In this document: piece after piece, positions 30,417 through 50,069 of the stretch
How positions within the stretch are numbered: position 1 is the first letter of the stretch
How the letters are laid out: each line of letters opens with the position of its first letter
Assembly (NCBI GenBank): GCA_002762845.1
Contig: PCYB01000066.1
Span: forward strand, 1-51,557
Direction: 5' to 3'
DNA from: Candidatus Woesearchaeota archaeon CG10_big_fil_rev_8_21_14_0_10_36_11
GTDB lineage: Archaea; Nanobdellota; Nanobdellia; Woesearchaeales; GW2011-AR9
DNA length: 51,557 bases
Program-made: the position numbers and the translations under genes
Notes under the pieces: generated by a model
The model's database searches: none
The model's input: only the letters and a program-made list of their open reading frames with translations
What the model was told of the DNA's origin: nothing

Positions 30417-30439
30417 GTCTCTTCCAAGTATATTCTCTA

Positions 30440-30736
30440 ATGCCACGATTAAAGTTTAAAAAAAAGTGTAACATATGCAAAGATGAGTGGGTTCTTGTTC
30501 ATCCACGAGAGTATACGATCTGTACAAAATGTCACATGAAACAGATTTTCTCTGAAGAAATTGATAATAAAAAATACGATTTTCTTAACATTAGTAAGAA
30601 ATTGTACGAACAATCACGTTTCTTACGGAATATCAGGCAAGCATATCTTATGTATAAGAACCTTACAGTCAAACAAATTTCTGCATTCAAAGATACTGTG
30701 AAGAAAGTCAAGGAAGGAAAAGAAGAATCAGAATAA
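30440..30736 (+). CDS. Small zinc-ribbon-like hypothetical protein
   Basis: 98 aa with CNIC...CTKC (two CxxC pairs) and a Lys-rich tail. Confidence 0.4.
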   Translation: MPRLKFKKKCNICKDEWVLVHPREYTICTKCHMKQIFSEEIDNKKYDFLNISKKLYEQSRFLRNIRQAYLMYKNLTVKQISAFKDTVKKVKEGKEESE

Positions 30737-30954
30737 TTTAAGTAATATTCTATTTTTGTTACATAACAATTTACACATAACAACTTACATAAAAAACTTT
30801 ATAAACATTTACTTAAGAATTTATAATGATAAGATACTTTTCCAGGCAACAAAACTGCCATTACTATTCTGGAGTGGTGTTTCTTCCGTAATCTTTATAA
30901 AGTATATACATTTTTAATTATCAAAACTAAAAGATACTGCTGAGGGCGCAATAT

Positions 30955-32484: not shown

Positions 32485-32525
32485 TTATGAAAAAAAAAGA
32501 TGGTTAGAGAGTGTGAAGAATAACA

Positions 32526-34586: not shown

Positions 34587-34618
34587 ATTAAACAAATAAA
34601 GACACACACAAACACACA

Positions 34619-35470
34619 ATGGTAAATAAAAAAAACGATACAATCCCATGTGGATACTGGAAGGATGTACACGGAGATGTGCACACTTTACCCGCAGGCT
34701 TTTGGACAGATAGGGACGGAGTAATCCGAGATAGAAGAGATAATCCACGACTTCCTGATGGAAGGTCAAGTGCTTTAGATGTATTTGCAAATTTACATGC
34801 GTCAACAAGTTTCCCAGACCTCTCAGGTCCAGAATCTGCTAGAATACAAGAATATCGAGAACTGGCTTATTCATTGATTATTATTTGTGGTGGTCAAGCA
34901 CCATCAGTAGTATCTCCAGTTTCGCGATCGCAAGGAACGGAAATACTAACACCTGCTGAAAGAAATGGTTGTTTTACATTCGGTGGTTTAGAAGTACAAC
35001 TAGATAAAGAAGAGATTGATGTTAGTGGAAAACCACAAACGTTTAACCGAAATTCGCCACCTGATTGTGTTCCTCAACTTTTACAGTTAGCATACGCTAC
35101 CATGTGCAATTCTCGCGAATCATATTTCCGTACAAAATTTGTTGCTAGCAATAAACCTGCAGAAGTATCAATTCTCAGAACGCATTATTTTCCTTTTAGT
35201 CTACTAGATAAAATCGATTCTGACGGAGATCCTATTGGGAGAGATATTGAGGTAGGACCTGCTCTTATGGATCATGTTTTGGTGGGGGGTACAGGTGTCC
35301 GAAGGGCGTATGTTACTCTTATGCTCCTTGATGGTGGTAGAGTGATATCTCAGTTACAAAAATATGGTGAAGGTACAGAAAGGATAATTCGCGCTGACGT
35401 TTTTTACAAACCTGTCGATGGAGAAGAAATAAAGATTGTTCCTTTGTATGAAAAAGAGATCTTGTTTTAG
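34619..35470 (+). CDS. Hypothetical protein (283 aa)
   Basis: Intact ATG ORF in the same-strand block. No motif recognised. Confidence 0.6.
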   Translation: MVNKKNDTIPCGYWKDVHGDVHTLPAGFWTDRDGVIRDRRDNPRLPDGRSSALDVFANLHASTSFPDLSGPESARIQEYRELAYSLIIICGGQAPSVVSPVSRSQGTEILTPAERNGCFTFGGLEVQLDKEEIDVSGKPQTFNRNSPPDCVPQLLQLAYATMCNSRESYFRTKFVASNKPAEVSILRTHYFPFSLLDKIDSDGDPIGRDIEVGPALMDHVLVGGTGVRRAYVTLMLLDGGRVISQLQKYGEGTERIIRADVFYKPVDGEEIKIVPLYEKEILF

Positions 35471-35532
35471 AAAATGACCTGGAGAATAAAAAATAAGCAA
35501 CAAAAAAGCAATTGGATATTCATGTTCATTAT

Positions 35533-35552
35533 CGTGACGTTCTGACGTCACG
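35533..35552 (+). promoter_or_regulatory. GC-rich perfect hairpin containing the palindrome TGACGTCA
   Basis: CGTGACGT-TCTG-ACGTCACG forms an 8-bp stem with a 4-nt loop. It sits in the largest intergenic gap of the block (35471-35618). Confidence 0.4.
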
Positions 35553-35618
35553 GTATGATTAAAAAAAAAGTATGGTGGATGAAAAAGTTACAATAAACAA
35601 CACGAGGTAAAAATAAAA

Positions 35619-36272
35619 ATGGTAACAACAACAAGGCCATGTGGAGACACTCGGCCAGAAGATAGAAAAGATGAAAAAACAGTTGAAGAGCAGAAATATA
35701 CCGTTGGAAATTTAGATCCAAATTTTCACGTTATTCTTGCACTGTTTCCTGGATGTGTTCAGGGTGGTCGAGTAGCAGTTGCAACGCGGGGAGACGATAG
35801 GCACGTTCTTTTAGACGGAACAGCTCAACAAATTGTTGAATATGGTGTAGGAAAGCAAGTAACTATCGAGGGTGTAAAATATTCTCGAAACGTTAGTGCA
35901 AGAGCGCAACCTGCAGTTGACGGTATCATTGCTGAAATGACGGGAACTGGCGAAGTTGCAAAACTCATTGAAGAAACTGGTAAAAAGACAGGGAAAGGTG
36001 CTCAGTTTGGTGGGTACACTGTTACAGTTCATGCAAAAGCTGCCGATGGTACTGAAGTAAAAGAACGTGTTACTTTAGGTTCTAAAGTAAATCAGTACTT
36101 CCGTCCAGATAGTGTTCTGAAAGATGATGTTAAAAGGGAGTTCCTCGGCGGAGTAGAACTGATGGTATCTGCAATCATCATACCTGGAAGTTCCAATGAC
36201 AAAAATGTTTTAGGAACTGAAAGCACTTCTAGCTATTGTGCAAAGGGTACCATTGACTACAAACTAGCATGA
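35619..36272 (+). CDS. Hypothetical 217-aa protein; candidate ubiquitin-like modifier precursor (speculative)
   Basis: Intact ORF with GAGG 13 nt upstream. Internal ...VKREFLGG (GG at nt 36147-36152) is followed by a 39-aa tail. The stop overlaps the next start (ATGA). Confidence 0.6.
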   Translation: MVTTTRPCGDTRPEDRKDEKTVEEQKYTVGNLDPNFHVILALFPGCVQGGRVAVATRGDDRHVLLDGTAQQIVEYGVGKQVTIEGVKYSRNVSARAQPAVDGIIAEMTGTGEVAKLIEETGKKTGKGAQFGGYTVTVHAKAADGTEVKERVTLGSKVNQYFRPDSVLKDDVKREFLGGVELMVSAIIIPGSSNDKNVLGTESTSSYCAKGTIDYKLA

Positions 36273-37735
36273 AAACATTAACAACGTTTTTGGAAAGGAT
36301 AGCTGAGAGGGGGCTTTCTTTTGTATTGCATGGAAGTCGTCTTTACGATTTCGTCGATACCGAGAAGTATCCGGATAATGTTCGTGTTGGCGGTTTTCAT
36401 CAATCATTAGTTCCCTCACTTTCTTTTTCTCATCTTGAACGTTTTGATGTTGATATGCAAGTAAGACCAATTCATACTCACTGTACCGGATATGTGAAAG
36501 ATACTGTCAATGCAGAACTGAAAGCAGAAGAAGAGTTACTCTCAGAAAAAGGGCGGATACACACTTTAGAATTTATCATGTATGAATTGTTACCTTTAAT
36601 CGTGAGCAAGAAATACGGTGCTGATAGTAGCATTTACCACGACGAAATTAATGCTGCTCTTGATGACTTAGAAGGGGGTACAGGAAAAACTTCTGGTGTT
36701 GAAATACAACAGGATAGATTTGTTCAAACAGCAAAAGAAGAGATACGAGCACAACTCGCACAGGATTTTGGAACTGACGATACGGTGGAAGAAAATCCAA
36801 GTGAACGATTACGTGCCATCGTATTGCAAAGAGAAAAACAATCTCTTAGTCGTGATCCTTTAGTTCCATTGTTATATACTCCCGAAGAAATTGGTATAGT
36901 TGAAGATGGTATTTCTTCATCACTGTTTGGAGAAATAACAGGTAACCAAGCATTATATGTTATTAATGGAAATGTCTTTCAGTTAGTGATACGAGACCAA
37001 CATGATGATGGTGCAGATAGTGTTGACAGTGAACTTGTTTTTACTGTTAACGGAAGGGAGTACGTTCCTGGTAAGAAAGTTACTGACATAGCAACACTTT
37101 CTTCAGAATATAAACAGCGCCGGGTAAAATTATGGCGTATTGCTGCCCTTGAAAAGAGTAAAGATGCGTTTGATATCATTAGAAATATAGTGAGAGAAGA
37201 TGGAGTAACACAAAGGCAAATGCATGAACTTGCAAAAAGAGAAGAGTATGATATTTCAGGTAGTGGTTTTATTTTAAGAGAAGGACACTATTATGTATAC
37301 ACAACAGTAAACAAATTTGCAACTCAAGATGGACGAAATGGTGATGTATTTTGGCCATTTCCTACAACACGTGTTGCTATTCAAGTTGGATCCAATGGTG
37401 GTGTACATTACGTTACTAGAGAAGTTTACGTTGTAGAACAGCGAGAACATCACCCCTGTATTCGTGAGAGAATGAGGCCTAGTGGATTTGGTTCATTATG
37501 TAACCTTAAAGATAGCAATTATGGAAAAACGCCCGCAGAGATGGTCCGTAGACTAAATGCTGGCGTAAATGTTGTTAGAGAGCCACTTAATCAAATCAGT
37601 CTTGATAAACATCCCGGGTACACATATTTTTATGTACATCTTGATGATATTTTAACTCAAGGTTCTTTGACACGTGCTGATGCAAGAGCACAGGGATATG
37701 ATGTTATTGAGGTGTTAGAAAAAAAAGTGACATAA
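36269..37735 (+). CDS. Hypothetical 488-aa protein; C-terminal region with UBC/E2-like motif pattern (speculative)
   Basis: The C-terminal ~150 aa show predicted-strand-like runs followed by EHHPCIRERMRPSGFGSLCNLKD and then a helix-like TPAEMVRRLNAGV. This resembles the HPN...Cys layout of E2 enzymes. Confidence 0.6.
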   Translation: MKTLTTFLERIAERGLSFVLHGSRLYDFVDTEKYPDNVRVGGFHQSLVPSLSFSHLERFDVDMQVRPIHTHCTGYVKDTVNAELKAEEELLSEKGRIHTLEFIMYELLPLIVSKKYGADSSIYHDEINAALDDLEGGTGKTSGVEIQQDRFVQTAKEEIRAQLAQDFGTDDTVEENPSERLRAIVLQREKQSLSRDPLVPLLYTPEEIGIVEDGISSSLFGEITGNQALYVINGNVFQLVIRDQHDDGADSVDSELVFTVNGREYVPGKKVTDIATLSSEYKQRRVKLWRIAALEKSKDAFDIIRNIVREDGVTQRQMHELAKREEYDISGSGFILREGHYYVYTTVNKFATQDGRNGDVFWPFPTTRVAIQVGSNGGVHYVTREVYVVEQREHHPCIRERMRPSGFGSLCNLKDSNYGKTPAEMVRRLNAGVNVVREPLNQISLDKHPGYTYFYVHLDDILTQGSLTRADARAQGYDVIEVLEKKVT

Positions 37736-37800
37736 AAAAACAGTATTGTATTACAATACAATACAACAATACAAAAAATAAATAAGAAAGGAATGATACA

Positions 37801-39744
37801 ATGACAACACATGACAACTCTGGAAATGATATAGGACCAATAAATGCTACTGCTGCACTTACTCCAGCAACTACTACTACTACTGTTGGTTCTGCTGCCA
37901 CTCCCGTTACTTCTACTCCTTCCGCTGCTTCTGCAGGTACTCCTGTTACTCCTGTTACTGATTGTCCGACCGGAATATGCCCATTACCAACACCGCCTCG
38001 AGACGACGATGAGTTATTCGATCTTCTTGATGATGCCGCGGCAGAACAAAGTTTGAGTGCATACAAACTTGTTCCCAATCCTTTAATAATTAGTAAGAGA
38101 TGTTTGGCTTTAGGCCATATGATTGGCGAAATAACGCGAGATGTTGACGGCGAGGGAGTGGGAAAAGGAAAAGGTCGAAACTTAGAAGTTGGCGGTTTTT
38201 ATCTTATTGACGGTGGAGACGATACATTTACTTTATGCGATTTTATCGTTCCAAACGACCTTCCCGTATCGCAAGGAAATATTGTTGTTGCAGAGCAATT
38301 TCCTATGGCTGGACTTGAACTACGGACACACAACGAAACTCAAGGAACAGACCTACGTATGGCAGCAATGTTTCATATCCACCCTACACTTGTTGGTGGG
38401 TTAGCTCATAGTTCTGCAGACGATGCTGCTCTTACGAGTCTAGTTAATAAAATGAAGGGGGCGACAGAACGATCGTATCCAGAACCATTTAGACTTATAG
38501 ATCGGTTGGCTGATAAAGTAAAGGAATACACACCTGAGGGCCAGATTATCAAAGGCGATGCGTTCAAAGATGTTGTACAAAAATTTATATTTCCTAACGA
38601 TGGAGCGTTCTACGCATTGTTACAACATTTTGGATTTCATCCGGATAAAAAATATTTCCAGAAACAAGAATTTTTAGCTCGGCTCCTTGACACTGTTGAC
38701 ATTTCTCTTGAAGAACCAAGAGTTGTTCATTTCGCGGCAAGTTTTGTGTTTAATTATACTACAAATGGGCCTTTTGTTAAAATGGGTATTGGTGAACGTC
38801 GACTCTTTACGGGAGAAAAACCAATAGTGTACACATCAGATGTTCCTCTTCAAGTTATTGATTTGGGAGAACCAATGCCAACAGAAGCAGAAGTTGCACA
38901 ATTAGTACGTGAAAGGATACGCTTTCCACCTCGACCAAAAGTATTTACAAGAACTAGAAGTAAATCTGCAAGAGGCGGTGGTTCTAGTTTACCCACGGGA
39001 TATCCTCCCGATGCCACGAGTTATCAGTCTCATGGCGACACATGGAGACAACAATGGGGTCCAGTTCAACCCACTTCTCCTTGGCTACAAGGTCAAGGTG
39101 CCTCTAATGCGTCAGGCGGTCCAGTAACTCCAAAAAGACAAACTGACGATAAAGTTACAGATAAAAACTATCGTTTGACCGAGATTGCAGATTTGTTTAC
39201 ATTAGCTGCACATTCTTATGTTCTCGAATGGCGACACGATGACTGTAAGTTTTCTGAATACCTTGACGATGTATTAACTTCAATAGACCGTTTCTCTCTT
39301 CAACAAGGATATGGGGTTTCTACCATTTCTGGAGGTACGAGACAACCGTCGCCCGTTTTTGGTTTTCGTGAAGCTGTAAAATATACTGGTCCAATTAGTG
39401 ATGATCCTTTGAAAGAAGTATTTACGCCACGATTTGCTTTCTATCACGCGAGTGGAGTTGCCAAATGTATCTCTGCAGGACTTAAAGAAAATCCTGATGA
39501 TAATGCGACTATTCAGTTCATGTTTAGGTTTATTTATGGTAGTACAGACTCACGGAATACAGCCTTACAAAGATATGTTACACAAGTTGCAGGGGAATAT
39601 GTTCCTTTACCGCAAAGTTTAGAACAAATTGAACCTACTGCTCACGTGCTTGGCACTCAAGAATTGTCAGATTTAAGCCTTACAACAATATATAATGGTG
39701 CACTAGACGATTTAGGTGATTCAACGGATAAAAATGAAGAATAA
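37801..39744 (+). CDS. JAB/MPN+ (JAMM) metallopeptidase-domain protein with low-complexity N-terminus and long C-terminal extension
   Basis: NLEVGGFYLIDGG (conserved Glu) and about 60 aa later MFHIHPTLVGGLAHSSADD (HxH...SxxD). The N-terminal ~60 aa are Thr/Pro/Ala/Ser-rich. Confidence 0.75.
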   Translation: MTTHDNSGNDIGPINATAALTPATTTTTVGSAATPVTSTPSAASAGTPVTPVTDCPTGICPLPTPPRDDDELFDLLDDAAAEQSLSAYKLVPNPLIISKRCLALGHMIGEITRDVDGEGVGKGKGRNLEVGGFYLIDGGDDTFTLCDFIVPNDLPVSQGNIVVAEQFPMAGLELRTHNETQGTDLRMAAMFHIHPTLVGGLAHSSADDAALTSLVNKMKGATERSYPEPFRLIDRLADKVKEYTPEGQIIKGDAFKDVVQKFIFPNDGAFYALLQHFGFHPDKKYFQKQEFLARLLDTVDISLEEPRVVHFAASFVFNYTTNGPFVKMGIGERRLFTGEKPIVYTSDVPLQVIDLGEPMPTEAEVAQLVRERIRFPPRPKVFTRTRSKSARGGGSSLPTGYPPDATSYQSHGDTWRQQWGPVQPTSPWLQGQGASNASGGPVTPKRQTDDKVTDKNYRLTEIADLFTLAAHSYVLEWRHDDCKFSEYLDDVLTSIDRFSLQQGYGVSTISGGTRQPSPVFGFREAVKYTGPISDDPLKEVFTPRFAFYHASGVAKCISAGLKENPDDNATIQFMFRFIYGSTDSRNTALQRYVTQVAGEYVPLPQSLEQIEPTAHVLGTQELSDLSLTTIYNGALDDLGDSTDKNEE

Positions 39745-39786
39745 AAAACAAAAAAAAGAATAATAAGAAACAACAACATTACTACA

Positions 39787-41340
39787 ATGACAAACGCTGA
39801 CACTCTTGTAATCGAAGAAGAACGGTATGACAGACAGAAATTGCTCTGGGGTGATGCTGGTCAAGATAGACTTAAGAATGCACGAGTGTCCGTTATAGGA
39901 TTAGATTTTCAGGGAAAATACGTTGCACTTTGTCTTGCAGCTCTTGGTGTTGGTAATGTAGTTCTTATTGATGGCAAAAATACAATCGAAGAAGAGGAAC
40001 GTGGCACATTTATGGGTACTCCCGTTTCCCATGGTTCTCGAGCATTAGCATATGCAGAACTTCTTCGTCGTGTTAATCCTCAAATACGCGTTGAAGGATA
40101 TCCAACAGACTTAGTTTCACGAATTGATCAAGATACATTAACTGGTTCAACAGTTATTGTTGATGCAACAAATATGGTTACATCAAAAAGAAATGCAATC
40201 CTGTTTGGTCATGAACATCATATCCCTGTGTTAAGTACATCTTCCCAATGGGGATATACAAAACTTGTACGGTGCGATTCCGAATCTCATGATCTAGCAT
40301 ATCTTATGCCTATGTTTGAAGGAAATGAGCAGGACGAATTAATGGCATTACTTATGTGCGGTGTTACGACTGAAGAAGTTCGTAAACTTATCTTTAATGA
40401 TAAAGATATTCTGCAAAAACCAGTTAGATACCGGCTTGGCGACGGATATCGTTTTGGATTCCCGAAAGAAGGAGAAATGGCTCCTCGACCTGATGCGACT
40501 AAATACGCTGATCTTCGTGTTGCATTCCTTGGCGCAGGCGCTATTGGATGTTGGGGCGCGATTGCTGCAGCAAAAATGGGCATTGACCGTGTTGACGTGT
40601 TTGATTACGATACGTTTGATTCAACAAATATTAACAGACAGGTATTAGGTTTTGACGGTGTTGGAGAACTGAAAGCAGTTCATATTGCAAAAAAGATTGT
40701 GGAAATGAGTTTAGGGAGAACACACTCTGATGGATTTAACGTAAAGATTCTTCCTGGATTTGAAACAGAACGGGAATATGATGTTGTATTCGACTTTGTT
40801 GATAATCCTTACACTCGTGCATTGAACACTGCACACGCAATTTCACATAATATACCAATGATAAGTTCAGGAGCACTTCCATATAGTGCGCGGTCAATAA
40901 CACAAGTTGCTGGAAAGACATTCTGTCAAGATTGTCTTTATCAGATTTATGATCGGGGTAGACAGGATGAAATGATTCGACGTGCAAGTTGTGCAGCCAA
41001 TCCTGACCCCTCGGTTGTCATGAGTAATGCTGTTGCAGGTGCACTTGCTGTACTTGAAATTTTTACGTTAGTTGAACCTGAAAAGTATGGGGTACCGTTC
41101 AGCGGAGAAATTATGTACCGTTCATCTGCTCCAACGAGGTTTGGTGCGGAGGGACTAACGGGTGCATGTGATTGTTATTCCAATCCTGTTCCGCAATTGG
41201 AAATATCGGATGAAGATGTTGCAGCATTTGCTAATGCAATTCCTCACGTACTTACGGGAGGATTAGTAGAAACTGAAAGAAAAGAAGGGAGAGGATTAGA
41301 AAGAGGATTAGAAGTGCTTACTGTTGAGCAACCAGAATGA
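39787..41340 (+). CDS. Tandem ThiF/MoeB-type E1-like adenylyltransferase (degenerate N-terminal plus intact C-terminal adenylation domain)
   Basis: Repeat 1: VSVIGLDFQGKYVALCLAALGVGNVVLIDG ... IVDATNMVTSKRN (nucleotide loop degenerate). Repeat 2: VAFLGAGAIGCWGAIAAAKMGIDRVDVFDYDTFDSTNINRQ ... VFDFVDNPYTRALN. Cys motifs CQDC and CDC are also present. Confidence 0.8.
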   Translation: MTNADTLVIEEERYDRQKLLWGDAGQDRLKNARVSVIGLDFQGKYVALCLAALGVGNVVLIDGKNTIEEEERGTFMGTPVSHGSRALAYAELLRRVNPQIRVEGYPTDLVSRIDQDTLTGSTVIVDATNMVTSKRNAILFGHEHHIPVLSTSSQWGYTKLVRCDSESHDLAYLMPMFEGNEQDELMALLMCGVTTEEVRKLIFNDKDILQKPVRYRLGDGYRFGFPKEGEMAPRPDATKYADLRVAFLGAGAIGCWGAIAAAKMGIDRVDVFDYDTFDSTNINRQVLGFDGVGELKAVHIAKKIVEMSLGRTHSDGFNVKILPGFETEREYDVVFDFVDNPYTRALNTAHAISHNIPMISSGALPYSARSITQVAGKTFCQDCLYQIYDRGRQDEMIRRASCAANPDPSVVMSNAVAGALAVLEIFTLVEPEKYGVPFSGEIMYRSSAPTRFGAEGLTGACDCYSNPVPQLEISDEDVAAFANAIPHVLTGGLVETERKEGRGLERGLEVLTVEQPE

Positions 41341-41438
41341 AACTGTTAATGCCTCTAACAACCACAATAAAAAATTTCAAAAAATAAACACAATGTCCAA
41401 AAAAAATCACTTAACTATTCACATAAAAAATTAATACC

Positions 41439-44400
41439 ATGGCAGAAGAAATTATACAAATGTTAAAACTTAAAGAACAAGAAAGAACTAAAGAACTAGA
41501 AATACTTCCTATACTCGATATTCCTCCTGCACTTGATGACGATGACAGTTTTTTTGATGAAGATGACTTAGCAGATATGTTTAATCGCGCAAGTGAAACA
41601 AATCTTTTTGGTGAAGAAGAAGAGGTTGTTACTGTTGTCGCTCCTCCATATGATCCAGTTAAGAAAATAGCAGCTATTTTGGAACTGGATGATGGTCGTA
41701 CAAAAAGAGATCCAGTAACATTCAATCCTAATCCTGTTCGTAATATGGTTTTTAACGCGTTGACAAGGAATGTTCTTCCAACAACATTTAAGGGCAGTCC
41801 TTTGGATAGTGATGGGCCAGTTTCTGATTTAGCAAGCGGAATATTGGTAGCTGAAAGTGCACTACGCCATTTTTCTATAAAAGAAACTGTTGATGGTGCC
41901 AGTTCCGCAGAAGGATATTTCCAAGAGGTTTCATGGAATTTAGGTACGCGAATGCAAAGATTGTTAAATCTTGAACTTGAGACAATGGAAGAACTGGGAT
42001 TGACATTATTAGAACGAGCAGGGTATGCATTTAATGCTGCATCACTTCGATATATCGATCTAAAAACAGGAAGATTTTTCTCTCGCGAAAAAGTACTTGA
42101 TGACATAGAACAACTTACTCTTGTTACAAATCCTACATTTATGAAGCGTGTTGGAATATATTACAGTACTCTTGGAAAACGATATATAAATGCCAGAATA
42201 AAAAAGTTTGTTTCTCGTGAAAGTGCACGAGATATGTTAGAACTTGGCGGCTCCATTAGAATTGCATCAGAGCTTACACTTGAAGAATCTGTTCAAATAC
42301 ACGGTAGGAAAAGAGTTGTGGAAAGAACAGAAACGTATCAAGATGTATTCTTTGAAGGGTTTCATCCTGAGACTTCTATTGTCGCTGATACCGTTGCTCA
42401 TATTCTTACTGGATACGAAGACCGTTTACGCTACGTTACTTCCTTTGATGAACTTGCAGATTTAACAACACTTTGTCTTGGCATTGGTTTAGTTACTGAT
42501 GAAACAACTGCCCAAGCTTTACGTACCTATGCTCTTGATCATTCTGTTGATGCGAGAACACTACTTTTGCGAACGTTCGCTACTGTTGCACAGCAGGATG
42601 GTTTTTTTCAGGACATGAAAATTGATGATGTATTATCACGATACGAAATTGGTTTACACTCAAGAGCAACATATACAAAAAATATGGTCCGTGAACTGGA
42701 CGAGTTACGTGGAAGAACATTTAATTTTAACGTATTAGCAGAACAAATTGTGACACGGTTAGAAGAAGAAAAAGGAGTTGTCCTTTCACTTCCTTCAATT
42801 TACGGTGAAGACGATTTTGATAATTTTTGTACCAGAATTACCGACTTTAATGTCCCTCTGTATGAAATTGTTTCTGATGATACGTTCGGCGCTTTACGAG
42901 CACAGTACGGAAAGATTCAATATGAATTTGAACAAAGTGATGTTAGAGCAAAAAAAGCTCGTGATGCCGTTCCTGTGGGCCATTCCTCATTAGGAGAAAA
43001 AGTGTTACAACAATTACACAGAAAGTACGGGCTTGATGTGGAACAAAGACAATTTGAATCCTATGAAGTATATAAAGAACAATCTGCAGAATTAATACAA
43101 GTTGTAAGGGGAATAATTCAAAAAACATTGGATGATGTTGTTACAGTTATTCCAAAAAAGTTAGGCGTTGACGTTCGTGTTAAATCTCTTGGTCCTATAA
43201 AAAGAAGAATAAGATATCTTCACGGGGGAGAAATCCATGACGTGCCTATTGGAAGCACAGGTACAGTTACAGGAATAAGAAAAGAAGGAACTTACACTAC
43301 TATCTTTGTTGCATTTGACCATCGTACTCATCACACTGATTGGTATACAGATCCTAAAGAGTTAGAGATTATTGCTAGTGATACTATTCCTTCTGAATTA
43401 CGTGGCGTTCTTAAAGAATTTGACGGCGATACTGAACGTGCTGCTGCCAGTATTATTAGCTCACTTGAACAGGAGATTAATTATGTATATCGAGAACAAG
43501 AGTTTAGAAGAATTAATGATGAACATATTGCACAACAAAAAGTAATCGCTGCAAAAATGTCCACTCTCTTTTTTGATAATGGAAAAAGAGTTATGCGAAC
43601 ATTTAGGGCATTAGGAATTGGGGAGTACAAGTCTAGAGAAACCAACACTCATCGTGTTCCTTTGGGAACTATTGGGCTTCCTGAGAGATACACCGGCGAC
43701 GGTTTTTTTGATGTTACATTTCCAATTCGAGACAGAAGAGGAAAGATTCATATTGATGAAATGCAACTTTTACGAAAAGTAGATGTTTCACCACGGTCAA
43801 TGATCGGTGCCCGTGCTCAAATTACTCAAGAAACAAATGAGGGAGATTATAAACTGGGAAGTTGGGGTATAGTAACTGGCACAGATGGAATTTCCCTGAG
43901 AGTACAATTTAAACATATTGAAGGAAAAGAGACTCAAGACGATTTACCTTGTGTATGGATACGTAGTCGGTATCTTACACTTAAATATGACGATATTGAA
44001 TGGAGAAAAACAGTTAATAAAACAACAAACAATCTCTTTGACAGTATTGAACAGACTGTACGTGATGTCCAGCGTGAATATAAACAGGTACAAAATCGCA
44101 AACGTGAATTAGTTGAATTAGGAGTGTCTCACTTCCGTGCAATAGGTATTGAAGATACAATCATACATATTCTTTTTGAGGATTGTCTTACCAATGAGGA
44201 TTTTGTGACGTATGTAAATAATGGTCTTCTTTCATCAGAAAGTGTGTTCGACGAAATTGAGACTGAACTAGATAGTTTAGGCGGCGAAGAGGAATATAGT
44301 GGTTTAGCTACTAAAATTAAAACTCAAGTTCAAGAAAAGATGGGACTCATATGGAGCGATACAACAGAAATTACTGGCGAAGAAACATATCAAACATTTA

Positions 44401-45158
44401 AAGATACACTTGTTGAATCGATAGTACAGAGGGGGTATATTATTTCAAAAGAAGGTACTGCAATCCCTAAAACTATCAAAAAGAGAACTCCCGTTCTTTT
44501 TGTAAAGGGATATGATGGAATTCCGGAAGGATCTTTTGGAATATTTAAAGAGTGGTGTGAAGGTGTGGGAGGGAACAATGTTCATGTTGATGGAACAACG
44601 AATGGGAACAATTGTTGTATCCCTAAAAATTGCTTAGTAACTGATGTCGTTCCTCTATTTACTTTACGTGATAACATTGATGATCTTACAAAAGGTGCAT
44701 ACAAAAGAGGCGTTAAAGTACGGCTCAGGATGGACAGCCAGTATGCATATCAACATGCAGGTGTTGGAGTTCTTGAAGAAGATTTAGAAGGAGAGGATAC
44801 AGAATATTATGGAGATGTATGTTTTGAAGGCGGGTACGTTAATGCATACAGAATAAAAGATTTAGAACTTGTCAATCCTCAAGATGTGTTACAGGGAAAA
44901 CAATTGCAATTGTATCAAAAAGCAATGCAAGAAAGAGAAACAAGAAAAGAAGAAATCCGGCGTGGTGTTGAATCAATAATTCAGGAAATAGAACGGGAAC
45001 GTAATCAACGCTATCAGAAAGTGCACGACTTATCTGTTGCTGTCCGAGACGAGTTACGGTCGTTTGGAAAAACAGACACAGAGATATACGAAGTATTTGA
45101 ACAACACATTTCTGAAACTTCTTACTTAACATACCGAGGAATATTAGATGTTGCATAA
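41439..45158 (+). CDS. Hypothetical 1239-aa protein with acidic N-terminus and at least 5 repeated beta-barrel-like modules
   Basis: Intact ORF. Repeats fall at about nt 43221-43379, 43650-43784, 43809-43991, 44484-44648 and 44709-44876. No catalytic motif recognised. Confidence 0.75.
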   Translation: MAEEIIQMLKLKEQERTKELEILPILDIPPALDDDDSFFDEDDLADMFNRASETNLFGEEEEVVTVVAPPYDPVKKIAAILELDDGRTKRDPVTFNPNPVRNMVFNALTRNVLPTTFKGSPLDSDGPVSDLASGILVAESALRHFSIKETVDGASSAEGYFQEVSWNLGTRMQRLLNLELETMEELGLTLLERAGYAFNAASLRYIDLKTGRFFSREKVLDDIEQLTLVTNPTFMKRVGIYYSTLGKRYINARIKKFVSRESARDMLELGGSIRIASELTLEESVQIHGRKRVVERTETYQDVFFEGFHPETSIVADTVAHILTGYEDRLRYVTSFDELADLTTLCLGIGLVTDETTAQALRTYALDHSVDARTLLLRTFATVAQQDGFFQDMKIDDVLSRYEIGLHSRATYTKNMVRELDELRGRTFNFNVLAEQIVTRLEEEKGVVLSLPSIYGEDDFDNFCTRITDFNVPLYEIVSDDTFGALRAQYGKIQYEFEQSDVRAKKARDAVPVGHSSLGEKVLQQLHRKYGLDVEQRQFESYEVYKEQSAELIQVVRGIIQKTLDDVVTVIPKKLGVDVRVKSLGPIKRRIRYLHGGEIHDVPIGSTGTVTGIRKEGTYTTIFVAFDHRTHHTDWYTDPKELEIIASDTIPSELRGVLKEFDGDTERAAASIISSLEQEINYVYREQEFRRINDEHIAQQKVIAAKMSTLFFDNGKRVMRTFRALGIGEYKSRETNTHRVPLGTIGLPERYTGDGFFDVTFPIRDRRGKIHIDEMQLLRKVDVSPRSMIGARAQITQETNEGDYKLGSWGIVTGTDGISLRVQFKHIEGKETQDDLPCVWIRSRYLTLKYDDIEWRKTVNKTTNNLFDSIEQTVRDVQREYKQVQNRKRELVELGVSHFRAIGIEDTIIHILFEDCLTNEDFVTYVNNGLLSSESVFDEIETELDSLGGEEEYSGLATKIKTQVQEKMGLIWSDTTEITGEETYQTFKDTLVESIVQRGYIISKEGTAIPKTIKKRTPVLFVKGYDGIPEGSFGIFKEWCEGVGGNNVHVDGTTNGNNCCIPKNCLVTDVVPLFTLRDNIDDLTKGAYKRGVKVRLRMDSQYAYQHAGVGVLEEDLEGEDTEYYGDVCFEGGYVNAYRIKDLELVNPQDVLQGKQLQLYQKAMQERETRKEEIRRGVESIIQEIERERNQRYQKVHDLSVAVRDELRSFGKTDTEIYEVFEQHISETSYLTYRGILDVA

Positions 45159-45179
45159 TACTATAAGGTGAAATATTAA

Positions 45180-47612
45180 ATGACACAAAAAACTGTTATC
45201 TCAACGGCAACTAGCGTAAATCTCACAGAAAGTACTATTCCTAACACTCCTCCTGATATCTTTGCACCATTACTAAAGACTGTGTACCAACTTGTAGCAC
45301 GGGATTATATTGATACCATTTTTTATTTATTAGGCGATACACCCTCTCGCGTACAGTTAGCTTCTCAAATTCCTAACATTCATACAGATGCAGACTTTGC
45401 CACTTTTTTATCTTCATTACCTTCGGCAACAGAACTTGCCGACATTGTAAAGCAAGACATTCGTGCTGAGTACGCAACGCTTGATACTGTTCTTGCAGAA
45501 AACGAAACACGACGTGCAACTGCATTGGCCGGTGCACAGATAGACTTTTCTGAATACGTTCCCGTATTACTTGAAGCAATAAATCGTCAATTACAAGTTT
45601 CACTTCCTTCTCCTAAAAGAGGTATAACTACCAAGGACGGTTTTGATACTTACCGAAGTACATTGGAAGGCCACGTATCTGATGCTATCACTGCAAAACT
45701 TACTTCTCCTTTTGGAAACGGTATGCGTATCGGCGATATTCTTACTGTAACGCGAATGTCAGGTCTTACTATTGACGATGATGGTGAGATGGCAGATGAG
45801 TTTCATTATGGTGGAAACCAAGACGATATTCCTCTTGGTCTTGAGGGCGAACTTGTCAATATCATTGGAAAAGATTCCGTTTTCGTTCGTTTTACTCGTG
45901 ATGGCGACGTAAAAGAATGGCAATTTTATCCCGACGAAATTACAAGTACTGGCAGAAATACGTACCAGGAATATCTTACCAAATTTGGTGGCGATGTAGG
46001 CCAAGCAGCCTCAACAGTTATTGCTACTGCTGAATTTCGTCTTATTTCTGAATATCTTCAAAGAGCACAAGAACGAGTTAATAACGTATTTGATGCAAAT
46101 GTTAGTTACATTTCAGATAGTATCCGAAGACGGTTTGCTCTTACCGACGATCAACTTACTGCCCTTGTTGCTGGTGATGACTTTGAGTACACCATTGACG
46201 ATGTAAAAGAAGGCGGACAAGTTGTCATTCCATTTGAAAGGTTGGCAGTCTTAGCATATCGGGCTTTAACTCACAAACTTGGTAAAGACACGAAACGTCC
46301 AAATCAGAGAATTGTAAGCGAAGCCGATTTTAGGCGTTTTATATCTGATTCAGCAATAAAATTGCGTGCAGGTGAAGATACATTCGATTTAGTTAAAGAA
46401 CAAATGAAAACTCTTGCAGTTTTACTCGAAAAAGAATATAGTGTTGTTGGCAGAAGGATGGTCCAGGAGAGTAAAGAAACACAACTAGGACGGGTTTTAG
46501 ATTTAGCAATTGAATCTTGGATTGATAGAGAACATCAAAGTGGTTGTTTAGGCGTCAAATATTCGTTTGATAGGGCATTATTGTACAATGATAGAAAAGT
46601 ATACACTGCTGAACCTTTCTCACCGCCATCAGAGGAGCTACATAGAGTTATCAAACTAGAAATGGGAAATGGTTGTAGTTATGCTAAATGCACGTATTGT
46701 ACAGAATATGGGCAGGCACGTTTCTTTTTACGGTCTCCTGACGACTTTAAAGATCATGTGCAGGAAGTAAAAAGAAAATTAGGAAGAGACATTAAGAATG
46801 TTGAAAGAGTATTTTTGGCTGGAGGGAGTATCCTATCTATTCCAACTAAAATACTTATTCAATATGTTGATATTGCCAGGAAGGCATTTCATAATCAACG
46901 AACAGATGGAGACAGAACGTATATTAGACGAATTGCTGCGTTTACGCGAACAGAAGGGCTAGCACGGAAGTCAGTACAAGAATTGGACGAACTGGTTAGT
47001 CATGGACTTAATATGGTTTTCTGGGGTATTGAAACGGGCGCTGATTCTGTTTTACAGTATGTTAACAAGGGAATTACTCACGACGAAATGATTGCTGCCG
47101 GATCAAAAATGCCACATACTCGAATGGAAGTTTCAACGATGGTAATGACTGGTCTTGGTGGACTTAAACATTATGAGAATCATGTTGTTCAAACTGCTAA
47201 ATTATTAAATGCTCTTCAGCCGCGATATATAACGTTTATGACGATAAATGCTCAACCTCATTCAATGTATGCTCATATCATGGCAGGAGAACAGGCTCGG
47301 GGAGAAAATATGCCCCTTACACCAGAGATGGTAGTCGAACAAATGTATGATATCGTGAGTCTTATTGACCCAAGATTATGGTCTGGTCGTCGTTGTTTAG
47401 TCGCTGCGTATCAATTACCTGTAGAACGAATTGCTGAAAATCCTGTACAATTTCGTGGCAGGTTAGAATATAATGACAAAACTACAATTTTGAGAGGGTT
47501 ACAAGATTACTTTACACGTGGTAGGACACCCAGTGAACTTGTTCCTGTAGCAGAATTTAATCAGAAAAGTCCTTTGAGAAGAATGGTGGTGGGAGACACT
47601 CCGATTGAATAA
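45180..47612 (+). CDS. Radical SAM enzyme with ~480-aa N-terminal extension paralogous to the preceding giant protein
   Basis: GNGCSYAKCTYCTEYG (CX4CX2C, nt 46674-46700), VFLAGGSIL, and FWGIETGADSVLQYVNKG. The N-terminal region carries a barrel-like module and the FGGDVGQAAS segment shared with 41439..45158. Confidence 0.75.
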   Translation: MTQKTVISTATSVNLTESTIPNTPPDIFAPLLKTVYQLVARDYIDTIFYLLGDTPSRVQLASQIPNIHTDADFATFLSSLPSATELADIVKQDIRAEYATLDTVLAENETRRATALAGAQIDFSEYVPVLLEAINRQLQVSLPSPKRGITTKDGFDTYRSTLEGHVSDAITAKLTSPFGNGMRIGDILTVTRMSGLTIDDDGEMADEFHYGGNQDDIPLGLEGELVNIIGKDSVFVRFTRDGDVKEWQFYPDEITSTGRNTYQEYLTKFGGDVGQAASTVIATAEFRLISEYLQRAQERVNNVFDANVSYISDSIRRRFALTDDQLTALVAGDDFEYTIDDVKEGGQVVIPFERLAVLAYRALTHKLGKDTKRPNQRIVSEADFRRFISDSAIKLRAGEDTFDLVKEQMKTLAVLLEKEYSVVGRRMVQESKETQLGRVLDLAIESWIDREHQSGCLGVKYSFDRALLYNDRKVYTAEPFSPPSEELHRVIKLEMGNGCSYAKCTYCTEYGQARFFLRSPDDFKDHVQEVKRKLGRDIKNVERVFLAGGSILSIPTKILIQYVDIARKAFHNQRTDGDRTYIRRIAAFTRTEGLARKSVQELDELVSHGLNMVFWGIETGADSVLQYVNKGITHDEMIAAGSKMPHTRMEVSTMVMTGLGGLKHYENHVVQTAKLLNALQPRYITFMTINAQPHSMYAHIMAGEQARGENMPLTPEMVVEQMYDIVSLIDPRLWSGRRCLVAAYQLPVERIAENPVQFRGRLEYNDKTTILRGLQDYFTRGRTPSELVPVAEFNQKSPLRRMVVGDTPIE

Positions 47613-47650
47613 AGTTTATAGATCAAGAATCGGAACAGTTACATGGGAAA

Positions 47651-48382
47651 ATGACACTACCAATTGAAATAATACATTTTGTGGACGAAATAAGAAATAA
47701 CAGATATTTTCAAAGAGAAGTGCGTTTTGTTCAAGAAGGGTTGGGGGTCGAGTTACCTTTTGCTAACTTCTTTAAGGATTATGTACCAAAAGAAGAATGG
47801 TTCTATCGACACAATACTGGTGTTCATGATATCTCTCATGAAACGAGAGTTCTTGTTCTCTCAGAAATTATTGGAAGGTTAGTGCGCAAAAAGAGAGAAG
47901 TTCTTGTTGATATGAAGAGCATTCGCTGGGCAGCAATTACTCATGACACACAAAGAACTGGAGAAGGGTCTAATTATGAACATGGAGTAAAAGCTGCAGA
48001 GTGGGTCCAATCTAATGCCCACCGTATAATCCCTCATGATTGCGATTCAAGAGGAGAAGAGGTGAATATTGATCAAGTAGCATATCTTAATAAGTGGCAT
48101 GTTCCGCACGACTCTGAGGCCCCTGTTATGACTTTAGAACTTTCTATTCTTAAAGATGCAGATGGATTAGACAGGGTGAGGGTTGGAGAACTAAATCCAG
48201 TTTATTTAAGAACGGAAGAAGCAACAAGAATAGTTTTTGTTGCGTATGGTCTTTACGTGGTTAGTAACGCTTTACAACAACGGGATCAACATCAGCAACA
48301 TCATTTTGGTGAATATGCTTCTGTTATAGAAGCTGCAACATTGTTAGGAATCGTAAAGAGAAGTACACTTGGGCGAGAATGA
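47651..48382 (+). CDS. HD-domain phosphohydrolase
   Basis: VHDISHE, AAITHDTQR (the HD dyad) and LKDADGLDRV motifs. Confidence 0.65.
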   Translation: MTLPIEIIHFVDEIRNNRYFQREVRFVQEGLGVELPFANFFKDYVPKEEWFYRHNTGVHDISHETRVLVLSEIIGRLVRKKREVLVDMKSIRWAAITHDTQRTGEGSNYEHGVKAAEWVQSNAHRIIPHDCDSRGEEVNIDQVAYLNKWHVPHDSEAPVMTLELSILKDADGLDRVRVGELNPVYLRTEEATRIVFVAYGLYVVSNALQQRDQHQQHHFGEYASVIEAATLLGIVKRSTLGRE

Positions 48383-48499
48383 GAATGAACATAAAAACAT
48401 AATCCGAATCCACAACTGAATGTTAGAATATCAATCAAGTGAATTAAAAAGACAGAAATAACAAGAATAACAAACAACAAAAAATAAACAAGAACAAAA

Positions 48500-49324
48500 A
48501 TGGACCCCGAATTAAGGTTAAGTTATATGAAGTATGTAGCCAGAACAGCCGGTGGTTTAATCAACGAAGCACTAGGGCGAGGTCTTAAAGTAAACTATAA
48601 AAATGACGGTTCTATTGTAACCTCTGCTGACCTTAGGGTAAGAGATTTTGTTCGGGAAGCGTTCACAAGAGAATTCTCAGAATGTGGTTTATTGACTGAA
48701 GAGAGTGAAGATTCTTTGGAACGGTTAACAAAAAAAGGAGTTATTATTGTTGATGAGGTAGATGGAAGTAACGAACTTAGAAAGGGGGGGTCAGACTTTT
48801 CATTTCAGTGTGCATATGTGGAAAATGGAATTCCTACTATTGGACTCATCTGTGAACCTCATAAAAATAGAATGTACTTTGCTCTAAAAGGGGGTAAGGC
48901 ATATCTTGTCGAGAGGGAAACGCAACCTATAGAATTACCTTCGTTAGAAAGAGTAGCGTGGGAAAATGTGCTTGTTGGCCATCATAGAAATGGGCGTGAT
49001 CATAGAAGACTTTATCGTCTTTTGGGAATACCTGAAAACAGAATTGTTACTTCTGGAAGCATGGGGACAAGGATGGTTCAAGCTGCTACTCGGGACATCC
49101 ATCTTTATGTAAGTTTTACAAGAAGATTAAAAGAATGGGACATTGCTGCTGGTCAGGTACTGCTTGAATCATTAGGATTTAGCGTGACAGATGTTTATGG
49201 AAAACAATTAGAATACAACAAAAGAAATCCAATAACTCAAAACGGTATATTGGTTGTTCATCCAGATATTAAGAGAGTTACTTTGAAAAAACTTTCTAGC
49301 TGTTATGATCAAGTTCTTTTTTGA
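48500..49324 (+). CDS. Inositol monophosphatase / CysQ-family phosphatase-like protein
   Basis: LTEESED, IIVDEVDGSNE (a variant of DPIDGT) and KEWDIAAG (the WDxAAG motif). Confidence 0.7.
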   Translation: MDPELRLSYMKYVARTAGGLINEALGRGLKVNYKNDGSIVTSADLRVRDFVREAFTREFSECGLLTEESEDSLERLTKKGVIIVDEVDGSNELRKGGSDFSFQCAYVENGIPTIGLICEPHKNRMYFALKGGKAYLVERETQPIELPSLERVAWENVLVGHHRNGRDHRRLYRLLGIPENRIVTSGSMGTRMVQAATRDIHLYVSFTRRLKEWDIAAGQVLLESLGFSVTDVYGKQLEYNKRNPITQNGILVVHPDIKRVTLKKLSSCYDQVLF

Positions 49325-49331
49325 TAATCTC

Positions 49332-50069
49332 TTAAACGATATACTCCTCTAGCCCGACTTGTTTTTTTTCTGTCAACGTATATTTAGATCCGTCGTAAGT
49401 ATATCTTTCATGAACACCAATTATTCCTTTTGCTTCATCAATAAAAGGGCCATCGCTATTAGGATCATAATCAAGATAGAACATTTCCATACCGCCTCTA
49501 TGGAAATGTGTTACGATTCCCATCCCCAACTCGCCATGTAGGGTTCCTTTTATCTGGAATGTGTGAACATTATCATTAGCGAGGATAGGTAAACGTGGGA
49601 TACGCATCGCAAGTCTGGTTTTATTTCCACACTCTTCATTTCCTACACTTTTATCTAATGCAATAAAATGTTCTGGAAGTTCAGAATATGATGCAGACAA
49701 TCCTTTTGGATGTCCGTTTGCGATTTCCATCACTCTCGCAATCCTCGCATCGTTTAAATGGGCGATGTACGCTCCGTCTCCCCTATGCTTATTAAAATAT
49801 GTATGAAAATCATCATACCTTGGGACAGATGTAAACTTTAGTTTTTCTGGATCTTCAATCATTTCAGAAGTAGTAAGTTTCTCAACAAGCGTATCTCCAT
49901 TTGCAACAATTAAAAATCTTTTAACGTCATTGGGTGTGCGATGATCGTACCCAATATCCCCTTCTTCTACAAAATCAGCTTTTCCGTCATTAATATGTGG
50001 GGCTACGATTGGTAAGTTATGTTCTACATGTAATCTTACTAACCAATTGAACAACTGATCGCTTTCCAT
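49332..50069 (-). CDS. Hypothetical protein (245 aa)
   Basis: ORF 49332..50270 trimmed to the ATG at 50069 (MESDQLFNW...). The longer form overlaps the divergent gene at 50175, and a TATA-like box lies about 25-35 bp upstream of 50069. Confidence 0.5.
   Translation of the reverse strand: MESDQLFNWLVRLHVEHNLPIVAPHINDGKADFVEEGDIGYDHRTPNDVKRFLIVANGDTLVEKLTTSEMIEDPEKLKFTSVPRYDDFHTYFNKHRGDGAYIAHLNDARIARVMEIANGHPKGLSASYSELPEHFIALDKSVGNEECGNKTRLAMRIPRLPILANDNVHTFQIKGTLHGELGMGIVTHFHRGGMEMFYLDYDPNSDGPFIDEAKGIIGVHERYTYDGSKYTLTEKKQVGLEEYIV

Follow-up and report, generated by a model that had tools for sequence, protein, structure and literature searches.

The DNA analysed here, referred to as the window, is a stretch of 51,557 nt from contig PCYB01000066.1 (GCA_002762845.1) of a Candidatus Woesearchaeota (DPANN) archaeon. 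One row of genes runs on the + strand from 30955 to about 49324, and within it two adjacent genes encode a 1239-residue protein (protein A) and an 810-residue radical S-adenosylmethionine (SAM) protein (protein B), which have in common a composite module of helices and small β-barrels. Protein A consists of a conserved N-terminal region of unassigned fold (~60-445), followed by the units U0 (445-711), U1 (712-945) and U2 (946-1239), in which the barrels b0 to b4 are located. Protein B consists of an N-terminal composite module and a helical linker (1-470), followed by the radical SAM domain. The elements of the two proteins are as follows.

41439-45158, + strand: protein A, 1239 residues (open reading frame).
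42771-42848, + strand: helix before the barrel, copy 1, 'LSLPSIYGEDDFDNFCTRI' (A 445-470); predicted helical, hhalign.
42876-43142, + strand: helical part of U0 (A 480-568), with a second, similar helix 'QFESYEVYKEQ'; helices predicted at 480-509, 518-530 and 542-568.
43161-43376, + strand: barrel b0 (A 575-646), canonical, related to Pfam SH3_15; strands predicted at 578-581, 607-616, 619-628, 631-637 and 642-646.
43392-43571, + strand: helices after b0, including 'LKEFDGDTERAAASIISSLEQ' (A 652-711); long helix predicted at 665-715.
43572-43781, + strand: barrel b1 (A 712-781); five predicted strands, predicted local distance difference test score (pLDDT) 80-90.
43800-44003, + strand: barrel b2 (A 788-855), divergent, marked by 'GSWG'; five predicted strands, pLDDT ~60-72.
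44019-44273, + strand: helical hairpin after U1 (A 861-945); helices predicted at 861-901, 906-916 and 919-927.
44292-44432, + strand: helix before the barrel, copy 2, 'ITGEETYQTFKDTLVESI' (A 952-998).
44466-44654, + strand: barrel b3 (A 1010-1072), divergent; predicted strands, pLDDT ~66-70.
44700-44876, + strand: barrel b4 (A 1088-1146), PsaE- and MIB/HERC2-like; five predicted strands, pLDDT 73-87.
44898-45134, + strand: helical hairpin after U2 (A 1154-1232); long helix predicted at 1154-1208.
45180-47612, + strand: radical SAM protein B, 810 residues (open reading frame, Pfam).
45342-45701, + strand: helices before the barrel of B, with two similar helices 'IPNIHTDADFATF' and 'VSLPSPKRGITTKDGFDTYRSTL' (B 55-174); BLASTP, hhalign and predicted structure.
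45726-45959, + strand: barrel of B (B 183-260), canonical, related to Pfam SH3_15; strands predicted between 186 and 260.
45960-46169, + strand: helices after the barrel of B, including 'LTKFGGDVGQAASTVIATAEF' (B 261-330); long helix predicted at 273-319.
46632-47579, + strand: radical SAM domain of B (about B 485-800); Pfam Radical_SAM 38.7 bits, cut-off 29.5.

An earlier note, based on inspection of the sequence by eye, had described a repeat of this kind in both genes, with five copies in A and one in B, and had suggested duplication. In a BLASTP comparison A 451-711 is aligned with B 64-319 (E 5e-7, 20% identity); the shared region therefore spans ~260 residues, well beyond the 45-residue unit and 21-residue segment of that description. 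Comparison of four-sequence family profiles with hhalign establishes the composite module as common to the two proteins (A 440-716 against the B N-terminus: probability 97.3%, E 1.7e-11, 243 columns), with the region A 480-568 aligned to B 64-180. The flanking helices are related in their own right. The helix before the barrel in A 425-480 matches that in A 946-1005 (97.4%, E 1e-11), and these two match B 121-180 at 88.5% and 93.3%, respectively. The helices after b0 (A 651-725) match B 263-335 (97.1%, E 6e-11) in an alignment that contains the pair LKEFDGDTERAAASIISSLEQ / LTKFGGDVGQAASTVIATAEF, which had been singled out by eye as a related segment. The helices after U1 (A 851-945) and after U2 (A 1151-1239) match each other (98.2%, E 2.7e-14). 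A single family of post-barrel helices was rejected, as there are two classes (b0/B and U1/U2) with no significant link between them.

Protein A is internally duplicated. BLASTP of A against itself found no repeats; the duplication is seen with a four-sequence profile (96.8%, E 3e-10) and with the alignment of the 14 members of the A family, where A 726-975 and A 1006-1239 match over 151 columns (98.7%, E 3.6e-16). This alignment of U1 and U2 sets b2 opposite b4 in register, and the helices behind them opposite each other. The units arose by duplication inside A; duplication as such had been suggested. U0 is closer to the N-terminus of B than to the other units of A; since it is the first unit that, in 'long-form' A proteins, most resembles the unit of B, a unit was probably moved or copied between the neighbouring genes.

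Among the barrels, b0 and the barrel of B are the closest pair (99.8%, E 2e-28); b1 matches the barrel of B at 96.2%, b0 at 93.5% and b3 at 78% (E 1.7e-5). Five other A-family members have a canonical barrel at the b2 position (99.4% to the barrel of B), which matches b4 at 61% (E 8e-5); compared alone, the b2 of the window, of the 'GSWG' type, gives 5-18%, with no good match. In P0035 and P0022 a b1-like barrel is found at the b3 position. A first iteration of the barrel hidden Markov model (HMM) on a small set recovered b0 and one orthologue barrel only, and a set of 77 proteins was required; iterated on these, the model matches A 592-643 at 7e-15 and A 732-776 at 5e-8. In the extended model b1 scores 7.5e-12, b2 is marginal (0.09-0.8) and b3 is also marginal. 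The best of 385 shuffled sequences scored 0.3 with the same HMM, reversed sequences in the first, smaller set scored 1.5 or worse, and a six-frame scan of the whole window gave matches confined to A and B. By sequence, then, b0, b1 and the barrel of B form one family, and b2, b3 and b4 are divergent.

The models generated with AlphaFold2 point to one fold at all sites. In the model of A 425-1239 (nine-sequence alignment, mean pLDDT 77.9) there are five units of five strands, at A 578-646, 717-781, 792-855, 1018-1072 and 1093-1144, each with a short helical turn ahead of the last strand; long helices lie between the units, those behind the barrels being 40-55 residues long. The model of B 1-470 (five-sequence alignment, mean pLDDT 79.6) consists of helices and one β unit, at B 186-260. 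An SH3-like pattern of five strands with the turn is thus predicted at all five sites of A, with a β unit of comparable size in B; pLDDT is 60-75 for b0, b2 and b3, and 73-90 for b1, b4 and the barrel of B. A Foldseek search of the PDB with the whole, mostly helical, B model gave no significant match, and its high-probability local matches were to SH3, KOW, Tudor and NdhS barrels; ribosomal L14e and L21e also appeared for this model. With the A model, tandem barrels were returned: Spt5 KOW arrays (6e-5), HERC2 (3.4e-4, probability 1.0), KIN17, Agenet and the 53BP1 Tudor domain.

These comparisons and models include checks that the earlier note had proposed, and its description is largely borne out. 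All 12 strings that it quoted are present in the two proteins at the positions given, the HMM-HMM repeat statistics are significant (E 1e-10 to 1e-28), and a common fold is predicted, with SH3, KOW and Tudor barrels and HERC2 returned by Foldseek. A five-stranded unit is predicted at each of the six proposed copies, although these do not form a uniform repeat, three being canonical and three divergent; the last three quoted copies in A (at A 804, 1027 and 1091) are the more divergent ones and rest on the comparisons b1/b3, b2/b4 and U1/U2. Three of the four helical pieces proposed to precede the modules are related (97.4%; 88-93%), and the fourth (B 379-395, 'VSEADFRRF...') was rejected as a member, with hhalign values of 34% and 4%. 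The feature lies where it had been placed but extends from nt 42711 to 46169 instead of 43221 to 46037, and the unit boundaries had missed the first barrel strand, which lies ~20-25 residues upstream (e.g. 'GVDVRVKSL', 'RIGDILTV').

Protein A as a whole has no Pfam, NCBIfam or PADLOC family match. Its N-terminal part (A 1-424, 41439-42710) is conserved in 14/14 members, with the motifs 'YDPVKRIA', 'GFxPE' and 'EELAxL', and nothing matching it was found among families, PDB entries or repeats. An insert of ~95 residues (roughly A 185-280) in the A of the window is not found in the other members. Seven members are 'long-form' and have U0 (about A 480-716), seven are 'short-form' and lack it, and in the family alignments the stretch A 480-568 is likewise limited to the long form. 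The number of barrels varies from three to five per member, some having been lost or swapped. The net charge of A is -51.

The barrel is not restricted to A and B. When 1.84 billion representative proteins were searched in full with HMMER, using a profile built from the N-terminus of B and A 440-716 (E <= 1e-3), 69 protein clusters with the barrel were found, so that the repeat family is not private to the two genes, contrary to what had been supposed. The clusters include B-type enzymes, ten further A-type proteins, stand-alone barrel proteins of 78-92 residues, multi-barrel proteins from other archaea and two eukaryotic or eukaryote-like proteins. P0038 (1681 residues, on a 2.96-Mb contig) has eight barrels and P0064 (Picozoa) has four barrels and EF-hands; the two connect the archaeal barrel family to the eukaryotic SH3_15 repeats. 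One member of the scanned barrel-protein set has a Pfam match to an ADP-ribosyltransferase (ART). Word-indexed homologue searches with A alone or with a four-sequence A alignment returned A itself only, and no relative was found in viral contigs scanned with the barrel alignment.

Pfam SH3_15, the Mind bomb SH3 repeat, matches 12 of the 42 relatives other than A and B at E <= 0.01. P0021 (25.8 bits) and P0064 (48.7 bits) are over its threshold, and P0040 and P0044 lie just under it (19-21 bits) over the full model length; the Pfam matches of b0 are weak (SH3_12 7e-4, SH3_15 0.12). When a profile of 38 barrels was compared with all PDB sequences, the top matches were the MIB1 structures 4tse and 4xi6 (E 1e-5), with both REP repeats aligned, followed by HERC2 (9l8y, E 3.6e-3); NusG reached only E 1.6-4.8. 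The b4 family, with the pattern 'GxKVxIRxDSxY..Q..GVG...V.F..GY.N.YR..DLELV', matches PsaE at 5e-5 over nearly its full length and the MIB domain of HECTD1 at 3e-4 over positions 20-57 only; the Pfam MIB_HERC2 match is weak (0.049, in 1 of 11 members). The profile of whole A matches the MZM region of MIB1 at 0.0085, individual stretches being weak. Pfam scans of A, B and the barrel relatives gave no KOW match. The matches to SH3_15, MIB1, HERC2 and PsaE therefore place the barrels in the SH3 clan, nearest to the Mind bomb/HERC2/PsaE group, and a likeness to SH3-fold modules of E3 ligases noticed by eye is thereby substantiated. Within the clan they form a remote branch that is for the most part unannotated, and whose nearest described relatives are Mind bomb REP, HERC2, HECTD1 and PsaE. 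The motifs 'YYxGG', 'PLGxxG' and 'WxxHPxE' of the canonical barrels are kept from archaea to eukaryotes; in the divergent b2-b4 the 'YYxGG ... W..HP.E' motif is lost. The barrels and both proteins are acidic, with a median isoelectric point (pI) of 5.2 for the barrel family and 16% of its members above pI 8.

The barrel of B is the seed of this family. The N-terminal part of B has no Pfam match and a net charge of -21. Orthologues of B (36-52% identity) always follow ThiF and A genes where upstream sequence exists, and their contigs have the identical gene order ThiF, A-like, B. The cluster-binding cysteines of B, C499-x4-C504-x2-C507 ('CSYAKCTYC', window 46674-46700), are conserved as a triad across 20 family members, of which 16 have CX4CX2C and four, the sub-branch P0011-P0014, have CX3CX2C; the spacing in B departs from the usual CX3CX2C. 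The radical SAM domain is weakly similar to the NCBIfam models RaSEA (1.2e-4) and MnmL/YtqA (1.4e-3), far below their curated cut-offs, so no specific subfamily was obtained from NCBIfam, and a comparison of the domain alone with PDB sequences gave no match.

The other genes of the row, and related genes at other loci, are the following.

30955-32484, + strand: SufS-like (SufS-type) cysteine desulfurase, first gene of the operon; Pfam Aminotran_5 2.6e-91.
Between the SufS-like gene and the 647-residue gene: four proteins of 686, 283, 217 and 488 residues, without family matches.
35619-36272, + strand: the 217-residue protein, a candidate ubiquitin-like sulfur carrier; tentative assignment from an alignment of four orthologues.
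37801-39744, + strand: divergent JAB/MPN-like protein, 647 residues; family profile against Prok-JAB.
39787-41340, + strand: E1-like protein with two ThiF domains, directly upstream of A.
47651-48382, + strand: HD-domain protein, below the Pfam cut-off.
48500-49324, + strand: inositol-monophosphatase-family protein.
L010:1773-9674 and L012:6056-12149: second, smaller operon type, on archaea-like contigs.
L003:7464-7655, L009:13709-15184, L016:13219-14571 and L017:12612-13988: B12-binding radical SAM genes.

The desulfurase matches the NCBIfam SufS subfamily at 1.9e-99, which is under the cut-off of that model, and a cysteine desulfurase is found at the same operon position in L009 and L016. 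The E1-like protein matches Pfam ThiF in two stretches (2.1e-42) as well as the ThiF and MoeB families of NCBIfam; PADLOC recognised its ThiF part and nothing more, so that a defence system of a known kind is not supported. The 647-residue protein has no direct Pfam match, and its profile gave nothing usable against the PDB; the family nevertheless matches the Prok-JAB proteins of L010 and L012 (hhalign 96.6%, E 5.6e-10, 252 columns). It has the motifs 'EVGGF' and 'FHIHP..GGLAHSSADD', and in the comparison the catalytic motifs are aligned, 'EVGGF' with 'EVGGF' and 'HIHP..HSxxDD' with 'HSHG..HSxxDD' of Prok-JAB; on this profile alignment it is assigned as a divergent JAB/MPN protein.

The candidate carrier was compared among four orthologues, those outside the window being at L001:1508-2185, L005:2133-2810 and L009:4164-4751. 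The family has a conserved '...GGVELxVSAIIxPG' followed by a variable tail, and two invariant cysteines, in 'CGDxRPEDRK' and 'FPGC', in its N-terminal part. It has no ThiS, MoaD or ubiquitin match in Pfam, and is weakly similar to the C-terminus of the 141-150-residue proteins ending in '...VSAVQQGG' and a tail in L010 and L012 (E 6.6e-4, 51 columns). It is possible that the 217-residue protein, with an additional domain, serves as an unusual ubiquitin-like sulfur carrier, and that the JAB-like protein trims this carrier. The profiles of the 488- and 686-residue families gave no usable match against the PDB. In the last ~90 residues of the 686-residue protein (32526-34586) an invariant Cys/Gly-rich motif, 'CPTGGCFK ... 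GGCCGGGN', is present in 4/4 orthologues; no family or PDB match to it was found, and it may be the site of a metal or cluster. The G+C content is 0.36-0.40 in window 30001-50000 compared with 0.32-0.37 for most of 1-30000, and the GC skew is steadily positive across this operon region.

The barrel proteins recur beside genes for a tandem-ThiF E1, in three operon layouts. The A/B operons (window, L001, L003, L005, L009, L015, L016 and L017) are one of these, and JAB-like genes were detected in them too. The smaller operon type has an AAA ATPase, a 141-150-residue protein with 'VSAVQQGG' and a short tail, one or two Prok-JAB proteins, the tandem-ThiF E1 and barrel proteins. In L010 the order is AAA, a 150-residue protein, two JAB genes, a 111-residue protein, E1 and a three-barrel protein, with more barrel proteins downstream; in L012 it is AAA, a 141-residue protein, a barrel protein, JAB and E1. 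In its make-up this type resembles a compact ubiquitin-like system that has a barrel protein as adaptor. In L013 the E1 lies two genes upstream of a four-barrel protein, separated by a 258-residue protein, and no JAB was detected on that contig; JAB is thus annotated or detected in two of the layouts. Full-length identity among the E1s of the three layouts is 28-38%, the window's E1 having been compared with those adjoining barrel proteins in L010, L012 and L013.

A further regularity concerns which protein carries the unit of the U0/B type. It is found in B only in L001, L003 and L005, in A only in L009 and L016, in which the place of B is taken by a B12-binding radical SAM protein that does not carry the unit, and in both A and B in the window and L017. 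All seven of these A/B operons thus carry at least one such unit, in keeping with a function that can be provided by either of the neighbours. The operon often has the B12-binding radical SAM protein (~450-490 residues) as an additional member, which follows B or takes its place. The 491-residue protein that replaces B in L009 was rejected as a relative of B, there being no similarity detectable by BLASTP. The window has no gene of this kind; the HD-domain and inositol-monophosphatase-family genes follow B instead.

From this homology, predicted fold and gene linkage we infer binding, a binding partner and a chemistry as follows. The shared unit would be a composite docking module, made up of a short amphipathic helix ('x-F/Y-x-x-F/Y-K/R-x-x-L'), one or two five-stranded SH3-fold barrels and a long helix or hairpin. 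Protein A is a string of three units with five barrels behind an N-terminal domain, and B has a single unit at its N-terminus. The ligand of the barrels would be a protein or peptide from the machinery that the same operon encodes, that is, the SufS-like desulfurase, the candidate ubiquitin-like carrier with its C-terminal tail, the JAB-like protease and the tandem-ThiF E1. Through such docking, the large scaffold protein A and the radical SAM protein B would be brought together with the activated carrier, so that sulfur transfer or conjugation could take place. That A and B are tethered in this way to a common component of the E1, JAB and carrier machinery is the explanation we favour, with a confidence slightly above even.

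The REP domain of MIB1 binds a short peptide, the C-box, of the Notch ligands JAG1 and Delta (PMC11887331). Docking to a protein is suggested because of this peptide binding, together with the conserved aromatic motif, the acidic character of the family and the gene linkage. The low median pI of the barrels and the charge of A fit binding of protein rather than nucleic acid. The retention of the motif from archaea through to eukaryotes points to a binding surface that is conserved, and the stand-alone barrel proteins indicate that the barrel works as an independent module. The recurrent linkage of barrels and E1, with JAB in two layouts, makes the idea of a common partner more plausible. The presence of SufS and of a radical SAM enzyme suggests a pathway of sulfur-carrier type, by analogy with thiamin and molybdopterin synthesis, which are sulfur-carrier pathways; a conjugation step is possible instead.

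Several points weigh against docking to this machinery. By Pfam's criterion the barrels of A and B fall outside SH3_15: the score of b0 is 13.1 bits (E 0.12) with a gathering threshold of 24, and the scan gave no match for the barrel of B, b1, b2, b3 or b4. The barrels b2, b3 and b4 are tied to the family by weaker profile matches, position and predicted fold, and the confidence of their models is moderate. The ubiquitin-like assignment of the 217-residue protein is weak (E 6.6e-4, no Pfam match), and no E2 match was found among the operon proteins with Pfam, NCBIfam or PADLOC. P0023 (L011) has neither E1 nor JAB nearby, the contexts examined outside the A/B operon are four in number, and the pattern of at least one unit per operon comes from the small sample of seven loci. 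The best Foldseek matches of the models include RNA-associated KOW arrays.

The last of these points leads to a different explanation, in which the barrels are KOW/Tudor-like nucleic-acid binders that hold RNA, and the operon thiolates tRNA or rRNA through SufS, E1, carrier and a radical SAM step. Besides the Spt5 KOW arrays returned for the A model, and L14e and L21e for the B model, the weak likeness of the radical SAM domain to tRNA-modifying RaSEA (1.2e-4) and MnmL/YtqA (1.4e-3) would fit it. So would the composition of the operon, as systems of SufS, E1 and a ubiquitin-like carrier, such as Urm1/Uba4 and SAMP2/UbaA, thiolate tRNA. The relatives found by sequence, however, are the protein-binding MIB1 REP, HERC2 and PsaE, and KOW is not among them, either there or in Pfam; the barrels are acidic (median pI 5.2, 16% above pI 8), as are A (-51) and the N-terminus of B (-21), and the RaSEA and MnmL/YtqA scores are far under the curated NCBIfam cut-offs. 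We regard RNA binding as quite improbable.

The units may instead be purely structural, acting as spacers or oligomerisation elements of a large scaffold, with the likeness of A and B reflecting ancestry without a shared ligand. Helices of 40-55 residues behind the barrels, the variation from three to five barrels in the A family with barrels lost or swapped, and the loss of the 'YYxGG ... W..HP.E' motif from b2-b4 would all agree with this. The motif of the canonical barrels is nonetheless conserved from archaea to eukaryotes, stand-alone barrel proteins of 78-92 residues occur, and barrel proteins recur beside E1 genes in different architectures, and a solely structural role is therefore thought unlikely. 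That the repeats seen by eye are a chance or compositional likeness of short β-rich segments could be argued from the empty self-BLASTP of A and the marginal HMM scores of b2 and b3. It is hardly credible in view of profile comparisons at E 1e-10 to 1e-28, for which shuffled and reversed controls reach at best 0.02-0.3, of a six-frame scan of the window that matches A and B only, and of the same strand pattern in independent structure predictions at six sites; for b0, b1, the barrel of B, b4 and the flanking helices it is already refuted.

A broader proposal can be made, though we hold it only tentatively and think it rather doubtful. The SH3-type barrels with which eukaryotic E3 ligases (Mind bomb, HERC2, HECTD1, Cul7/PARC) hold their substrates may descend from an older archaeal adaptor that worked with E1-like, JAB and ubiquitin-like carrier proteins, and which in DPANN archaea tethers a scaffold and a radical SAM enzyme. 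Protein A would then be the prokaryotic counterpart of an E3-like adaptor for substrates or enzymes, in a pathway, not described before, coupling ubiquitin-like activation to radical SAM chemistry. The locus bears on the origin of substrate-binding modules in eukaryotic ubiquitin ligases and on the extra machinery of archaeal ubiquitin-like or sulfur-carrier systems. It is an operon conserved in DPANN and other archaea, with SufS, four large proteins, the candidate carrier, a JAB-like protein, the tandem-ThiF E1, a scaffold and a radical SAM enzyme. The recurrence of barrel proteins beside this type of E1 offers a concrete way in, the barrels being small and probably soluble.

Full-text literature searches returned no paper describing the operon or reporting SH3_15-type barrels from E1/JAB systems of prokaryotes. 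The fold and the superfamily are already known; what is new, so far as can be judged from these searches, is the composite unit, its sharing by A and B, and the operon. Among known systems, the REP repeats of Mind bomb (PF18346, SH3_15; 4tse, 4xi6) are similar in being small SH3-fold barrels of ~67 residues in tandem, in the pattern 'G-x-x-G-x-V ... I/V-x-V-x-F ... W-x-x-N/H-P', and in belonging to a protein of a ubiquitin-type pathway. They differ in that the barrels of A and B have an inserted 'YYxGG' loop after the first strand and conserved helices around them. The host here is an archaeon, A and B are without RING, ZZ and ankyrin domains, and the operon encodes an E1 and a JAB-like protein with no recognisable E2 or E3.

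The MIB/HERC2 domain (PF06701; HECTD1 3dkm, 2dk3) shares with b4 the pattern 'G-x-R/K-V-x-x-R ... Q-x-x-G-x-G ... V-x-F/W-x-x-G-x-x-N-x-Y-R ... D-L-E', and the tandem barrels of HERC2 (9l8y, 9l93) are matched by the barrel profile (3.6e-3) and by Foldseek (3.4e-4); the MIB/HERC2 match is however partial (profile positions 20-57), and PsaE outscores HECTD1. PsaE, photosystem I subunit IV (PF02427), is the best sequence match to b4 and has the same SH3-like barrel. It is, in contrast, a single-domain photosystem I subunit of cyanobacteria and plastids, DPANN archaea are not known to have a photosystem, and the setting of the b4 barrel is unrelated to that of PsaE; the likeness is one of fold and superfamily only. 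The Spt5/NusG KOW arrays and tandem Tudor/Agenet domains are also strings of small SH3-like barrels and are the best Foldseek matches; they differ in that there is no sequence-level match, and the barrels here are acidic with helices between them.

As to the operon, that one pathway should also include a radical SAM enzyme is reminiscent of ThiH and MoaA. In the prokaryotic ubiquitin-like and sulfur-carrier systems (ThiS-ThiF, MoaD-MoeB, CysO-Mec, QbsE-QbsD and the archaeal SAMPs; PMC1779556), E1-like, JAB-like and cysteine desulfurase proteins are encoded together, as they are here, with a small protein that has a Gly-containing C-terminal motif followed by a tail. The barrel proteins do not appear in that 2006 survey by Iyer, Burroughs and Aravind, in which a text search for 'SH3' returned nothing. 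Compared with these operons, the one described here has an E1 with two ThiF domains in one chain, a JAB-like protein of 590-650 residues that escapes Pfam, a candidate carrier of ~200 residues with a Cys-containing N-terminal part, and four large proteins whose folds are unassigned.

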